Positions 3,048-61,487 of a stretch of 64,000 nt of DNA are shown here, piece by piece. How positions within the stretch are numbered: position 1 is the first letter of the stretch; the number at the start of each line of letters is the position of its first letter. This stretch comes from Malacoraja senta. Taxonomy: Eukaryota. The notes under the pieces are model-generated. The model was not told the DNA's origin, did no database searches, and saw nothing but the letters and a program-made list of their open reading frames with translations. The translations under genes and the position numbers were made by a program. Location: assembly GCA_038087875.1 (NCBI GenBank), contig CM075991.1, positions 3,534,001-3,598,000 on the forward strand, read 5' to 3'.

Positions 3048-5094
3048 CCATATCCCTCTATTCCTTGCACTTACATGTGCCTGTTTATAAGCCTCTTATC
3101 TATCGTATCTGCCTCCACCACCACCCCTGGCAATGCGTTCCATGACCCCACCGCACTCTGTGTAAAAAAAATATCCTTTATATTTTTTAAAAATCTGCAG
3201 AAGGTTCATTAAGTATGTAGCACGGAACTTTCAAGTCAACACTCCCATAGTAGATTATTTTATTCCAATTACCTAACATGACAACATCATCAGTTATCAT
3301 TCATGAACAACCTTAGGACAAATGTTTCACCAATATAGATTTAAGTCTGTTTATGTGCACTGGGCAGGGTTGACCTGAACTGTGGGCTCTCTCCAAAGGG
3401 CTCAGGTAATGGGGGCACCAGCTTTAACATGTCCTTAGCAGTCCTGGCCTGGCCCCTTTAGGATGCTGGTTTGTCAAACTCATTACGTTGGCACTCTAGG
3501 CGGCCTCATAAGGTCATAGGTGATAGGAGCAGAATTAGGCCATTTGGCCTATCAAGTCTCCTCCGCCATTCAATCATGGCTGATCTATCTCTCCCTCCTG
3601 ACACCATTCTCCTGCCTTCATGAACCGCATTTTATGCAGGGGTTATGTTCCTCAAAAGGAGCGTGTAATTCAAAAACTCATAAATTAAAAATATAACTCT
3701 AAACATGAGTAACCTCGAGTGCAATATTTCAAAAAAGGAGCACGTGAATTATATTTTGCTGTTAATTAAACAAGCACGATATTTCAAAAGCACATTAAAT
3801 AAAATGTGTAAACGGCGAGGTGAGTGTACAAGTATTCTGCTTTATTATACAGTATTTTTACCACAGAGTCGACATCGACCAGCGATCACCCCCGTACTCT
3901 AGCACTATCCTACACACTAGGGACAGGCTAGGGACATGCTAGGGACACGTTAGGGACAATTTACTATTTTTACAGACTGTAATTGACCTACAAACCTTTT
4001 TTCCTTTAGTTTAGTTTAGAGATCCAGCCCGGAAACAGGCCCTTCAGCCCACCGGGTCTGCACCGACCAGCGATCCCCGCACATTAACACCATCCTCCTA
4101 CCCACTATCCTACATACACCAAGCCAATTAATCTACAAACCTGTACGTCTTTGGAGTGTGGGAGGAAACCGAAGATCTCGGAGGTCACGGGGAGAACATA
4201 CAAACTCCGTACAGACAGTGCCCGTGGTCAGGATTGAACCCGTGTCACCGGTGCTGCAAGCGCTGTAAAGCAGCAACTCCGCCGCTGCGCCACCGTGGCC
4301 GACCATTTCTGTCAGGTGACCTCCCAACCTGTACGTCGTTGGAGTGTGGGAGGAAACCGGAGCACCTGGAGAAAACCCACGCGGTCACAGGGAGAACGTA
4401 CAAACTCCGTACGAGTTTCAGAGAATTCAATGTTCTAAAGGAATCAGTCTTTAGAAGGGTCCCGACCCAAATTGTCATCCTATCCATGTACCTCAGAGAT
4501 GCTGCCTGACCTGCTGAGTTACTCCAACATTTTGTGTTTTTCCTTGGTAAACCAGCATCTGTAAATCCTTGTTTCTAGTCAAAGTTCATACCTTTGGGTT
4601 GTAAGCAGCCCCAGCGGAATATGAGGTGCTGTTCCTCCAGTTTGCGTGTGGCCTTATTCTGGCAATGGAGGAGGCCCAGGAAGAAAGGTCAATGAGATGC
4701 CAACACGCCTCACACGTGACAGGGCTGACAGGGCAGGTCAGGTGGATTGGCACATCAGGAATGGAGCCAATCAGAGCTGCTGGGAGTACTGAAGTGACTG
4801 TTGGATGTGGAGAGGATGCTGCCACTAGTTTCCACTAGGGGGAGAGTCGAGGACCAGAGGACACAGCCTCAGGATAAAAGGACGTACCTTTAAAAATAAT
4901 TTCTTTAGCCAGCGGGTGGTGAATCTGTGGAATTCAATTTCTCAGAAGGCTGTGGGGGCCATGTCAATGGATATTTTTAAGGCAGAGATTGACGGCCTCT
5001 TGATTAGCATGGTTGTCATGGGATTTGGGCAGAAGGCAGGAGAATGGGATTGTGAGGGAAAGGTAGATCAGCCATGATTGAATGGCGGAGTCCA

Positions 5095-8635: not shown

Positions 8636-9357
8636 AGAAAGAACTGCAGATGCTGGAAAAATATAAGGTAGACAAAAAATGCTGGAGAAACTCAGCGGGT
8701 GAAACTGCAACGTCACCCCTCCATGTTTTCCAAGGATGGGGCCTGAGTTGCTCCATCACCTTGTGTCCTATTTGGTAAACCAGCATCTCTGGGCACTGAG
8801 AACAATCCCTTCCAGGGAGCGGGGAGGGCAGGAGAACGACAGAAACAACTTGAAAGAATATTCCTCCAACCCCATCTATTGCATGCGCTGCTCTAGATGT
8901 CAGCTGCTCTACATCGGTGAGACCAAGCACAGGCTTGGCGATCGCTTGGCCCAACACCTCCGCTCGGTTCGCAACAACCAACCTGATCTCCCGGTGGCTC
9001 AGCATTTCAACTCCCCCTCCCATTCCGAATCTGACCTTTCTGTCCTGGGCCTCCTCCATGGCCAGAGTGAGGCCCACCGTAAAGAGGAGGAGCAGCGCCT
9101 CATATTTCACTTGGGCAGTTTGCACCCCAGCGGTATGAACATTGACCTCTAATTTCAGGTAGTCCTTGCTTTCTCCTCCCCTTCTCAGCTACCCCTCAGC
9201 CCACTGGCTCCACCTCTTCCTTTCTTCTCCCTGCCCTCCCGCCCACACCCTCACATCAGTCTGAAGAAGGGTCTCGACCCGAAACATTGCCTATTTCCTT
9301 CGCTCCATAGATGCTGCCTCACTCGCTGAGTTTCTCCAGCATTTTTGTCTACCTTTG
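8636..9357 (+). mobile_element. Penelope-like element 3' remnant (GIY-YIG endonuclease, pseudo-LTR, inverted pseudo-LTR piece)
   Basis: IYCMRCSRCQLLYIGETKHRLGDRLAQH...VAQHFNSPSH...LIFHLGSLHPSGMN (~8860-9152) is a Penelope GIY-YIG domain with CxxC. Hammerhead-like motif at 9261-9290; 8660-8702 is inverted relative to 9318-9357. Confidence 0.9.
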
Positions 9358-13680: not shown

Positions 13681-14063
13681 ACGATAGCCTGGGCGGACAC
13701 AGCCATGCGATCCAGCGGGCAGAGAGATGATCAGGGCTGAGCTGTTCGAGCGTGAACTTCAATGTTTACCACGATTGAGTTACTGGCTTATAATTGCCAT
13801 CTCTTATTTGTTACTGTGCGTACATTTGATACTGAAGTCTTTAAGTGGATGGATAGATTGAGCCAAGTGTTTGACAAGGTCCCACACATGCGATTAGTGT
13901 GCAAACTTAGAGCACATGGTATTGGGGGTAGGGTATTGACATGGATAGGGAACTGGTTGGCAGACAGGAAGCAAAGAGTAGAAATTAACGGGTCCTTTTC
14001 AGAATGGCAGGCTGTAACTAGTGGGGTGCAGCAAGGCTCGGTGCTGGGACGCCAGTTATTTAC

Positions 14064-14179
14064 GTATAGGAAAGAAATGCAGATTCTGAAGAAGGGTCTC
14101 GACCCGAAACGTCGCCCATTCCTTCTCTCCAGAGATGCTGCCTGTCCCGCTGAGTTACCCCAGCATTTTGTGTCTATCC
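14064..14179 (+). mobile_element. 116-bp Penelope pseudo-LTR-derived insertion bearing a hammerhead-like motif
   Basis: Flanked by a perfect 12-bp duplication ccagttatttac (14052-14063 and 14180-14191) within a CR1 coding sequence. Confidence 0.85.
14086..14113 (+). ncRNA. Minimal type-I hammerhead-ribozyme-like motif
   Basis: CTGAAGA-A-GGGT(CTCG)ACCC-GAAA-CG-TC: conserved core CUGANGA/GAAA/UH, stem II hairpin, loop-less palindromic ACGT in place of stem III. Activity not shown. Confidence 0.6.
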
Positions 14180-14788
14180 CCAGTTATTTACAATATATAT
14201 TAACGATTTAGATGAAGGAATTAAACGTAACATCTCCAAGTTTGCGAATGACACAAAGCTGGGTGGCAGAGTGACTGCGAGGAGGATGCTATGAGGCTGC
14301 AGGGTGACTTGGATAGGTTGGGTGGGTGGGCAGATGCATGGCAGATGCAGTATAATGTGGATAAATGAAAGTTTATCCACTTTGGTGGCAAGAATAGGAA
14401 GGCAGATTAATATCTGAAATGTGCCAGATTAGGAAAAGGGGAGGTGCGACGAGACCTAGGTGTCCTTGTACATCAGTCACTGAAAGTGAGCATGCAGGTA
14501 CAGCAGGCAGTGAAGAAAGCTAATGGCATGTTGGCTTTCATTGAGAGAGGATTTGAGGAGCAAGGAGGATTTGAGGAGCCAGGACTAGCTAGGAGCAAGG
14601 AGGTCCTACTGCAGTTGTACAGGGGCCTCGTGAGACCGTAGCCAGAGTATTGTGTGCAGTTTTGGTCTCCTAATTTGAGGAAGGACATTCTTGCTATTGA
14701 GGGAGTGCAGCGTAGGTTCACCAGGTTAATTCCCGGGATTGACACATGATGAAAGAATGGATCGATTCGACATATTCACTGGAACTTA

Positions 14789-21768: not shown

Positions 21769-22427
21769 TTTTTATTTATTTATTTTATTTATTATTATTA
21801 TTTTATTTATTTTTCCTTTTTTAAATGTTTTTATTTATTAGAAGTACATTACATTACAACCACATACATTAGTACTCGTCACTTATGTCTTCTTACAATT
21901 AATGTACTCCATTTGTTTTTTGCACTAGAAAAAGAAAAGATTGAAAGAAAGAAGAAAGTGAAGGAAAAAGTGAAAGTGTAGAAAATGTGACAACAAAAAA
22001 GGACGAAGACCCTATAAGAGCAAAATTAAAAAACAAAAGAAAAAGAGTTAAGAAATAGACCCTAGAAAAGAAAGAGAAAGAGAAAGAGGAAAAAGAGAGA
22101 AACAAATATTTTTATGAGCATTACGTAAATGGGACATACCAACTCTTCAACTAGCATCCCCCCTTACCTGACCTCAATTTTTTTTAAAGTACTTTTGCAC
22201 CCTATATTTGTAATAATTCTATAAATGCAGACCACGTCAGGTGGAAGTGATCTGGTTTACCTGCTAGGAGGAGTCTTATCTCTTCTAGGTGTAATGTTTT
22301 GAACATATTTGAAGTCCACATATTTATAGTTGGTATTGGAGCCTTCTTCCAAAATTTTAGAATTAGCTTTTTTCCAGTTATTAACCCATAGTCCATTAGT
22401 TTCTTTTGAAACACATTTAGTTCTGGG
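21769..22427 (-). mobile_element. L1 LINE 3' end (ORF2 C-terminus, 3' UTR, A-rich tail)
   Basis: GKKLILKFWKKAPIPTINMW...LHLEEIRLLLAGKPDHFHLTWSAF resembles the fish-type L1 ORF2 end; 18-bp TSD gttcatgttaaattctat at 21751-21768 and 22428-22445. Confidence 0.85.
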
Positions 22428-22485: not shown

Positions 22486-23180
22486 AGCCCCTGTCCCACT
22501 TACGTGTCCTTGGCACGCTAATTACGTGACCTTGTGATCGCGTTGAGGCGCGACGGTCCCGCAAAGGTCGCGCGCGACTTCATGCGCCCGCACAGCCGTC
22601 TTGAGCGCGTGACGTCATTTGAAGATGGACACAAAATGCAGGAGTAACTCAGAGGGACCGGCAGCATCTCTGGAAAGAAGCAATGGGTGATGTTTCGGGT
22701 CGAGATTACTCTTCAGTCTGAAAGAAGGGTCTTGACACGAAACGTCATCCATTCCTTCTCTCCAGAGATGCTGCCGGTCCCGCTGAGTTACTCCTGCATT
22801 TTGTGTCTATCTTCAATTTTCTTGGCCCCGTTCTGGGAGTAGAATTGGGGGCGGATCCGGACTGCAACGGCCGTGAGCCCCAGGCCGAGCTCGGCGATCG
22901 TTTGCCTGTTACTGCTGCTGTTGGAGGTGAGACGTGGCATTGCGCCAGGGTCTTGGGCCTGTCCCACTTTGGCCGTCAGTTACGCGACAGGTCGGTGGCA
23001 CGCGAAGATTTCGTTCGCTACAAAATCTCGGAGCGCCGCGCGATATCGCGCACAGCTCCATACCCCTCCGCACTTCTCAGTGGCACCGGCCCCGCACGGC
23101 CACACGACGCCCGTGCGCCTCAACGCGACCACGAGGTCGCGTAATTTGCGTGCCAAGGACACGTAAGTGGGACAGGGCCT
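22486..23180. mobile_element. PIF/Harbinger-type MITE carrying an inverted pair of Penelope-derived units
   Basis: Long TIRs agcccctgtcccacttacgtgtccttggcacgc / gcgtgccaaggacacgtaagtgggacagggcct; TAA TSD; host repeat resumes on both sides. Confidence 0.85.
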
Positions 23181-38121: not shown

Positions 38122-38258
38122 CTTGAAGTCTGAAGAAGGGTCTCGACCCGAAACGTCACCAATTTCCTCCTATCCAGACATGCTGCCTGTCCCGCTGAGT
38201 TACTCCAGCATTTTGTGTCTATCTTCGGTGTAGATCAGCACCTGCAGTTCCTTCCTAC
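38122..38258 (+). mobile_element. Penelope-derived mini-insertion with intact hammerhead-like motif (38130-38157)
   Basis: Flanked by acacttaattg / acacgtaattg (11-bp TSD, one mismatch). Confidence 0.75.
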
Positions 38259-42879: not shown

Positions 42880-43003
42880 CTTATTCTCCCTCCCCCTGAC
42901 GTCAGGTCCGAGGAAGGGTCTCAACCCGAAACGTTTCCCATTCCTTATCTCCAGCGATGCTGTCTGTCCCGCTGAGTTACTCCAGCATTTAGAGTCAATC
43001 TTA
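42880..43003 (+). mobile_element. Penelope-derived mini-insertion (decayed hammerhead-like motif)
   Basis: Perfect 11-bp TSD agaatataatt (42869-42879 and 43004-43014). Confidence 0.8.
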
Positions 43004-59855: not shown

Positions 59856-61134
59856 CTGTCTGAAAGCAGAGCAATTACATTTACAGCTAATTTTTTTTAA
59901 AAAATTTTTAATGATTCAGTGGTACTTTATTGTCTCAAGTCTCTAGACGCATTAATATTCGTTGTGTTGTAAACAATTAAGCAAAATCATTCTATACAGT
60001 AAGCACAACCATACCCATGAACAAGAGTGCACTAAATGTGGTGTAAGAATCATACATTGCACTGCGGTAGAACACAATGGGTTACAATGTTTCCAGAACT
60101 ATCTGCTTTTCTTCAAGTTTAGGTTTTTAGTTTTTAGTTTTAGAGATACAGTGCAGAAATAGGCACTTCGGCCCACCCGGTCCGCGCCGACCAGCTATCC
60201 CCGCTCACTAACATTAGCATTATCCTACACTCACTGGGGACAGTTTTACATATTTACCAAACCAATTAACCTCTCCATCTTTGGTGTGTGGGAGGAAACC
60301 GAAGATCTCTGGATCGGTTCTCTGGATACTTTCAAGAGAGAGCTAGATAGGGCTCTTAAAGGTAGCTTAGTCAGGGGATATGGGGAGAAAGCAGGAACGG
60401 GGTATTGATTGGGGATGTTCAGCCATAATCACATTGAATGACGGTGCTGGCTCGAAGGGCCGAACGGCCTACTCCTGCAACTATTGTCCATTGTCTATCT
60501 TGGAGAAAACCCACGGGGAGAACGTACAAACCCCGTAGAGACAGCACCCATAGTCGGGATCGACCCGGGTCTCTGGTGCTGTAAGGCAGCAGCTCCACCA
60601 CTGTGCCACCATGCTGCCTTAGTTGGGATGTCATGATACAGGTGTATGTAATGTTAGTTCATCCCCAATTTTGCCGCATTGCGTGCAGTGCTGATTCATG
60701 CTACCACAGGACTATAATTCAGCTATTGAAGGCGCCAAAAAGATTTGCAAGAATTTGCAAGAAGGCTTGAGTAATAAGGAAATATGCAAGGTTGTTAGCA
60801 GGACTTTTACGAGAATGTTGCTAGGACTTAAGGGCCTGAGCCAGTGAGGGATGAGCAGGCTCGGATTTTACTCCTTGGAGTGCAGGAAGATGAGGGGTGA
60901 TCTTATAGAGGTGTATACGATCATGAGAGGAGTAGATCGGGTAGAGTCTTTTAGAAAGACGGTCTTTCCTACATACTATCTCTGCCTCTCAGAATTTTAT
61001 ATGAACGTTTTAGATAAGCATTAGACACAAACAGCTGGACTACGTCAACGGGTCAGGCAGTATCTCGGAAGAAAAGGAAAAGGTGACTTTTTGGGTCAAG
61101 ACCCTCCTTCAGATGTACAAACTTATCCTGGTCA

Positions 61135-61487
61135 AGGGGGGATGCTAGTTGAAGAGTTGGTATGTCCCATTTACGTAATGCTCATAAAAATATTTGTTTC
61201 TCTCTTTTTCCTCTTTCTCTTTCTCTTTCTTTTCTAGGGTCTATTTCTTAACTCTTTTTCTTTTGTTTTTTTAATTTTGCTCTTATAGGGTCTTCGTCCT
61301 TTTTTGTTGTCACATTTTCTACACTTTCACTTTTTCCTTCACTTTCTTCTTTCTTTCAATCTTTTCTTTTTCTAGTGTAAAAAATAAATGGAGTACATTA
61401 ATTGTAAGAAGACATAAGTGACGAGTACTAATGTATGTGGTTGTAATGTAATGTACTTCTAATAAATTAAAAAAACAAAAAACAAAA
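61135..61487 (+). mobile_element. L1 3' UTR insertion, very recent
   Basis: Near-identical reverse complement of 21833-22165; aataaa and A-rich tail; perfect 18-bp TSD acaaacttatcctggtca (61117-61134 and 61488-61505). Confidence 0.88.

Follow-up and report, generated by a model that had tools for sequence, protein, structure and literature searches.

Does a short hammerhead-bearing insert in a skate LINE represent a mobile family in its own right, or is it the remnant of a longer element? The window, a stretch of 64,000 nucleotides of Malacoraja senta DNA, contains 116 bp (14064-14179) enclosed by exact 12-bp direct repeats. The original prediction saw in these 116 bp a member of a discrete, non-coding, SINE-sized and ribozyme-bearing family, mobilised in trans by the reverse transcriptase (RT) and GIY-YIG of a Penelope-like element (PLE). 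Table 1 gives the features of the window; positions within the module are numbered from the C of CTGAAGA (+1, window position 14086), the preceding base being -1.

Table 1. Features of the window that bear on the insert (TSD, target-site duplication)
Feature	Position	Strand	Remarks
Left TSD	14052..14063	+	exact 12 bp
Inverted 21-bp PLE tail-end piece	14064..14084	-	reverse complement matches tail of copy 38130
Direct pseudo-LTR arm, -1 to ~+93	14085..14179	+	subfamily D/B type; 5' end at hotspot
Minimal type-I hammerhead motif	14086..14113	+	core intact
Right TSD	14180..14191	+	exact 12-bp partner of 14052..14063
Interrupted, decayed LINE reverse-transcriptase region	13831..14500	+	approximate extent, boundaries unmapped
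Longer 5'-truncated copy, subfamily A	8865..9355	+	GIY-YIG C-terminus, pyrimidine-rich spacer, hammerhead module
~690-bp element with terminal inverted repeats	22487..23179		head-to-head hammerhead dimer at 22619-22816
Solo module, -3 to +129 with tail	38122..38258	+	11-bp TSD, one mismatch
Solo module, -24 to +95	42880..43003	+	exact 11-bp TSD, core mutated

The insert, its LINE host and its hammerhead motif

The insert is composed of 21 bp of inverted Penelope tail and 95 bp of pseudo-LTR. Read as its reverse complement, the inverted piece matches the end of the tail, which in longer copies, e.g., the one at 38130, comes after +94. In the direct arm, the motif CTGAAGA-A-stem II-GAAACGTC occupies 14086-14113, and a further 66 nt belong to the pseudo-LTR. 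The host LINE, which we take to be CR1 or CR1-like from its motifs, gives a Pfam RVT_1 match on the left flank (E 3.9e-5, below the curated cut-off) and no Pfam match on the right flank. Among 18 LINE rows that carry both flanks, three are the insert locus itself and 13 are uninterrupted; among the 15 paralogous copies of the LINE, 13 read straight through the insertion junction, which confirms the predicted insertion, with its exact 12-bp TSD, into a LINE RT region. Judging from these paralogous empty sites, the TSD was probably 14 bp long originally, with one later substitution. The other two paralogues are L211, which was scored with a 30-bp gap, yet whose printed sequence is contiguous, and L160, which carries an independent PLE module at the same junction. 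The L160 module belongs to subfamily A, lies on the minus strand near 3138 and has no clear TSD; its position hints at a possible preferred target site. An Rfam scan returned no family at gathering score, a tRNA search found none, and the sense strand of the insert has no Pol III boxes, as the absence of a Pol III promoter had been predicted.

The insert possesses the CUGANGA, GAAA and UH core elements and a 4-bp helix II, and its helix III stub is palindromic; its helix I is a single G-U pair and does not close the core. Among 23 long copies, 20 have a helix I of exactly 2 bp. Core, helix II and a 2-bp helix I are all intact in 15/23 long copies versus 19/104 short copies, and in the latter the catalytic GAAA decays at its CpG (changed in 25/104). 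Core G12 at first seemed protected in long copies (changed in 0/23 versus 25/104 short copies), but larger long sets did not bear this out (3/28 and 9/27). Across 18 sequences, 94% of cells were paired and no pair had changed on both sides, a covariation result equal to that of shuffles, and thermodynamic folding did not recover the hammerhead fold, stability being unremarkable (z -1.7 to +1.1). The core pattern has 19 matches in the window versus 1.5 expected, with 0/100 shuffles as high.

By its sequence, 14086-14113 fits the minimal PLE hammerhead described in PMC4209133 and can be regarded as a candidate ribozyme. It shares with the minimal metazoan PLE hammerheads the extra base before helix II and the palindromic helix III stub, and the long copies share with Drosophila virilis the 2-bp helix I at the intron end. 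In contrast to those hammerheads, helix II is only 4 bp here, no compensatory changes were found, and the insert has one helix I pair. Cleavage of minimal hammerheads is described there as low even for dimers (PMC4209133), and eight of nine Xenopus hammerhead dimers are reported as inactive in bioRxiv 10.64898/2026.07.22.740005.

Two further stand-alone inserts had been proposed in the window, at 38122-38258 and 42880-43003. Both are real insertions with TSDs, but the ends differ among all three inserts, and the module at 42880-43003 begins at -24, within parental sequence.

The ~690-bp element of Table 1, which is presumably Harbinger-like, represents another carrier of the hammerhead. Elements of this type (L299-L310) measure 660-710 bp and have TAA/TTA-like flanks. 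A probe for the junction of the dimer gave at least 40 matches at 94-96% identity, and two such junctions occurred in 800 kb; in eight of 12 fetched loci, the window's own included, both terminal repeats and the dimer were present and the flanks differed. This type resembles a DNA transposon and is a discrete non-coding hammerhead carrier, one that likely moved as DNA. The window also holds a young repeat (21900-22425 and 61134-61399), copies of which were present at 95-99% identity in several of the sampled stretches.

The parent element and the layout of its copies

Compared with 27 long D copies, the direct arm of the insert shows 62-96% identity; for 28 long B copies the range is 64-95%. 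In the long copies of A, B and D, the module follows GIY-YIG sequence, and at most D loci the GIY-YIG similarity lies immediately upstream of it. Going upstream from the module, the long copies present a pyrimidine-rich spacer, then the GIY-YIG C-terminus, which in the window itself (8865-9149) matches PF01541 above cut-off; further upstream, RT-like motifs and a CX4CX2C linker appear, together with partial tandems of near-full length whose tail runs on into the 5' part of the element. The predicted Penelope origin is thereby upheld, identity between the insert and the ends of GIY-YIG-coding elements reaching 96%. Stop-free RT pieces had no Pfam or PDB match, and the identity of the parental RT was assigned from motifs by eye and from linkage. 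The translations of L055 and L240 exhibit a CX2-5CX2C linker and cysteines inside GIY-YIG, and such a linker is given in PMC8557442 as a mark of Neptune or Nematis PLEs. The parent is best described as a putative EN+ PLE of Neptune/Nematis type, placed by these signatures rather than by an RT tree and with the two clades kept together. A variable tandem repeat with a 27-bp unit lies within the 5' coding region of the parent (L146, L171-L200). At L042:9403-9620 and L128:4394-4727, the element passes from its 5' part straight into the terminal module, and these two copies may be derivatives that lost internal sequence but can still serve as templates.

In 80 stretches of 10 kb, placed at round coordinates on large contigs, 412 distinct module matches were counted (5.15 +/- 0.45 per stretch), a count that takes in both dimer arms, fragments and satellite units. 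Extrapolation of this density, ~515 per Mb, gives ~1 million modules genome-wide, mostly of 95-135 bp, and on this point of high copy number and SINE-like size the original prediction was right. Only 17 of 342 copies extend into coding sequence. At L121, a 66-bp tandem satellite derives from the 3' part of the module, without the CUGANGA half.

The 3' ends of the modules are bimodal, lying near +88-97 and +124-131 (hereafter the ~+94 and +131 classes), and beyond the tail no conserved sequence was found among 154 short copies, shared neighbouring repeats apart. TSD scores of at least 10 were obtained for 97/387 copies versus 5/387 mismatched controls, some of these being tandem artefacts; removal of tandem artefacts and duplicates left 62 non-redundant TSDs of 10-18 bp, with 65% AT versus 56% in the background. 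A sequence-specific target was rejected, as AT bias alone and no strong consensus emerged from these 62. Pairs of modules are common: 446 matches included 79 head-to-head and 10 tail-to-tail pairs, and 45 of 59 pairs with canonical ends bear the tail on one arm only (p 8e-6). The insert's composite inverted junction has at least four genome-wide matches, itself included. The other three loci possess a similar joint through CTG microhomology and unrelated flanks, so that amplification of this junction was rejected.

The layout of the insert, i.e., a TSD, an inverted 5' copy and a tail at one end, is that of published PLE insertions. The legend of Fig. 2 in PMC8557442 describes PLE insertions that have an inverted copy on their 5' side and, at one end, a tail of 30-40 bp; the insert is the extreme case of this layout, with a tail arm of 21 nt and another arm of 95 nt. 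PMC8557442 and PMC3846280 indicate that Neptune/Nematis EN+ PLEs share with the skate element 5' truncation, an adjacent inverted copy and a tail at one end, palindromes at the junctions and TSDs of ~10 bp, as well as the CX2-5CX2C linker and the C-terminal GIY-YIG; the ~1 million mostly 95-135 bp modules and the measured 5' hotspot set the skate element apart, no such hotspot having been found in the passages covered. For Poseidon of Anolis carolinensis (PAc), both target strands are nicked and extended, and reverse transcription begins at two internal sites bounding the tail (PMC11167929). The skate element resembles PAc in having two such sites, in its AT-rich targets and in a hammerhead cut site that does not mark the ends. 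PAc differs in belonging to another clade and in an ORF that starts inside the hammerhead, whereas the start codon here likely lies past the tail.

Extrapolating the PAc biochemistry across clades to the skate element, the element's enzyme would prime reverse transcription on both strands of a target nicked at sites staggered by 10-18 bp, and both copies would stop early. One cDNA would run 21 nt from the +131 site, to which a priming role is ascribed by analogy with PMC11167929, the other would run 95 nt from the +94 site, and the two would be joined at the CTG microhomology. We hold with good confidence that the insert is a dead, truncated copy of a Neptune/Nematis-type PLE, likely doubly primed, rather than a SINE or a retrozyme; it is probably unable to propagate alone.

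The template could conceivably have been an antisense transcript driven by weak tRNA-like boxes on the opposite strand, an idea to which we give almost no credence. The minus strand of the insert does contain an A-box and a B-box with one mismatch each, 53 nt apart, relative to the consensus sequences, but by a rough estimate such loose matches are near chance, and the A-box is broken in subfamily A. Antisense templates have been proposed in PMC3846280; against them, the long copies have fixed sense 3' ends and a continuum of variable 5' ends.

The 5' ends of the short copies

Intact 3' ends and sufficient flank were present in 361 copies, of which 355 aligned and 342 passed 80% identity. Of the copies that reach -1, 105/166 stop by -6, that is, 0.15 per nt, ~20x the background (0.007-0.012 per nt at +13 to +48; 0.003-0.016 beyond -13). 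The 5' ends are thus non-random, as had been claimed, and randomly distributed ends, the observation that would have spoken for ordinary truncation, were not what was found. Ends defined by ribozyme cleavage were rejected, since +25 to +30 holds no excess (13/274, 0.008 per nt). Sorted by nearest reference (n = 342), hotspot counts of short/long copies were 18/12 for A, 52/3 for B, 38/8 for D and 43/10 for others. The TSD lies within 4 nt of +1 (gap -4 to +3) in 13 of 22 TSD-defined short copies. In the open-literature listings and passages covered, we found no described 5' hotspot at the hammerhead edge.

Two causes deserve most attention. First, we tentatively favour, short of calling it probable, a template RNA that would end at -6 to -1. 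Priming at the internal sites of its leading pseudo-LTR would then limit copying to the initial 95-131 nt of the transcript, and TCAGTCT at the hotspot resembles an initiator. A cap-like excess of G at -4 is absent (C 32, A 10, G 4; n = 46), which counts against an RNA start. So do about 16 distinct copies, counted by eye with duplicated loci merged, that cross the leading hammerhead from downstream: 12 continue upstream and four stop at -2 to +5, these four being still above background (p about 0.005). Poly(A) reads of a relative, of which ~6% were read at 85% likeness, revealed no site where many molecules begin and cover the module equally on both strands. This coverage fits read-through of embedded copies, and the start was not located. 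Second, a barrier to reverse transcription at the pyrimidine-CAG splice acceptor or at the helix I edge is a possible, somewhat weaker candidate. A pyrimidine-rich run and CAG precede the hammerhead in long copies (CAG in 26/28 B and 19/27 D), the D. virilis Penelope intron ends at helix I (PMC4209133; PMC2377424), and the locus L201, described below, has a donor-acceptor junction. That the cause is a different one altogether seems unlikely.

Among such other causes, the hotspot could be a joining artefact, the near-palindrome TCAG-T-CTGA annealing two cDNA ends or a folded-back end in the manner of the self-priming model (Arkhipova et al., 2013). Copies with an inverted partner behave accordingly: their hotspot ends lie at -5, where the near-palindrome begins or ends, in 21 of 38 cases, a second peak lies at the helix II palindrome, and palindromes at inverted junctions have been published (PMC3846280). 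However, copies that lack the inverted arm keep the hotspot (67/118), with a peak at -4 to -2, TSDs directly abut in the 13/22 copies mentioned above, and a hairpin of 3-4 bp is weak. Palindrome annealing accounts for the dimers, not for the solo copies, and we consider it an unlikely source of the hotspot as a whole.

We consider it highly unlikely that the short modules are copies of a hammerhead exon produced by splicing or back-splicing, with the CAG at -1 as acceptor and a donor ~35 nt beyond the tail. The pyrimidine run and CAG do stand in front of the hammerhead across subfamilies, a donor-like AAG|GTATG occurs in 19/30 ORF-start copies, the D. virilis Penelope intron mentioned above terminates at helix I, and the fold-back at L201:1380-1875 has an exact donor-acceptor junction in both arms, which suggests that its template may have been a spliced or circular RNA. 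But L201 stands alone among the matches found (at least one locus) and showed no TSD, a second candidate donor at the ORF stop had 0 matches, TSD-defined short copies have no upstream exon sequence, and the joint is absent from the best-supported joints in the relative's RNA.

By-products or a family of their own

A sharp 5' end that persists in copies lacking an inverted arm (67/118) and ~515 modules per Mb would also be expected of a separate, non-autonomous, ribozyme-bearing and SINE-like family, with short masters of its own moved in trans by PLE RT/GIY-YIG. Precedents exist: non-autonomous Chlamys elements and PLE-derived retrozymes have been published, and in Adineta pseudo-LTRs alone sufficed to mobilise a host gene (PMC3846280), from which it follows that short modules might serve as templates. 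The hotspot is, however, common to all subfamily groups, long copies too occur in every group, and among the matches listed most short copies are without a common upstream flank. When 117 short and 25 long copies were placed on a tree, the two kinds were interleaved, with 22 label changes versus 23.3 in shuffles (127/500 shuffles as low); there is one short-only group of 15 rows, and the tree has low power, with 96 columns and 8 starred branches of 139 inner ones, so that short masters keep some likelihood. The small share of copies that extend into coding sequence (17 of 342) likewise speaks against the by-product reading. In addition, the insert has no sense Pol III boxes and 5' ends are not at the cleavage site. 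Finally, a minimal template of the anole element needs sequence 3' of the RT start sites (PMC11167929). The stumps end at these sites and lack that sequence, and they would be poor templates if the requirement holds across clades. With the hotspot in all subfamily groups, labels unclustered and the insert's junction not amplified, the claim of a separate non-coding family found no support, and we judge such a family improbable.

Equally improbable in our view is a variant in which the short modules would be copies, made in trans, by PLE protein, of a discrete short hammerhead-exon RNA that starts at the conserved splice acceptor and can be spliced or circularised, as L201 suggests; these copies would have outnumbered the coding parent ~20x, as a promoterless, splice-defined equivalent of a SINE.

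The insert can also be compared with known classes of short hammerhead-bearing repeats. The modules have the discrete ends of a SINE (0.15 versus about 0.003-0.016 per nt), with neither a Pol III promoter nor a tRNA head. Animal non-LTR retrozymes, according to PMC7229834 and bioRxiv 10.64898/2026.07.22.740005, are likewise non-coding and derived from pseudo-LTRs, with a type-I hammerhead and long TSDs. In retrozymes, however, units that each hold a complete ribozyme are repeated head to tail. The insert consists of a single unit and an inverted tail, and its ends bear no relation to the cut site; two near head-to-tail cases occurred among all loci examined, both with spacers, and unit ends are not set by ribozyme cleavage. 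The schistosome SINE-like repeats (reviewed in PMC6765202) are also short, dispersed and hammerhead-bearing, but they appear to be Pol III-transcribed and liberated by cleavage, neither of which is seen here. In the metazoan survey of minimal hammerheads, most motifs are solitary or opposite-strand pairs and are attributed to truncated PLEs (PMC4209133).

The insertion cycle of PLEs is still poorly understood, and this genome supplies ~1 million fossil products of it with ends that can be counted. The two start sites that in vitro work identified for the anole element gain in vivo support, from a different clade, through the asymmetry of the tail, and the 5' hotspot makes a testable prediction on either the start of the template RNA or a block to RT. 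As an insertion it is unremarkable, and stumps of this kind should not be entered as SINEs or retrozymes in repeat annotation.
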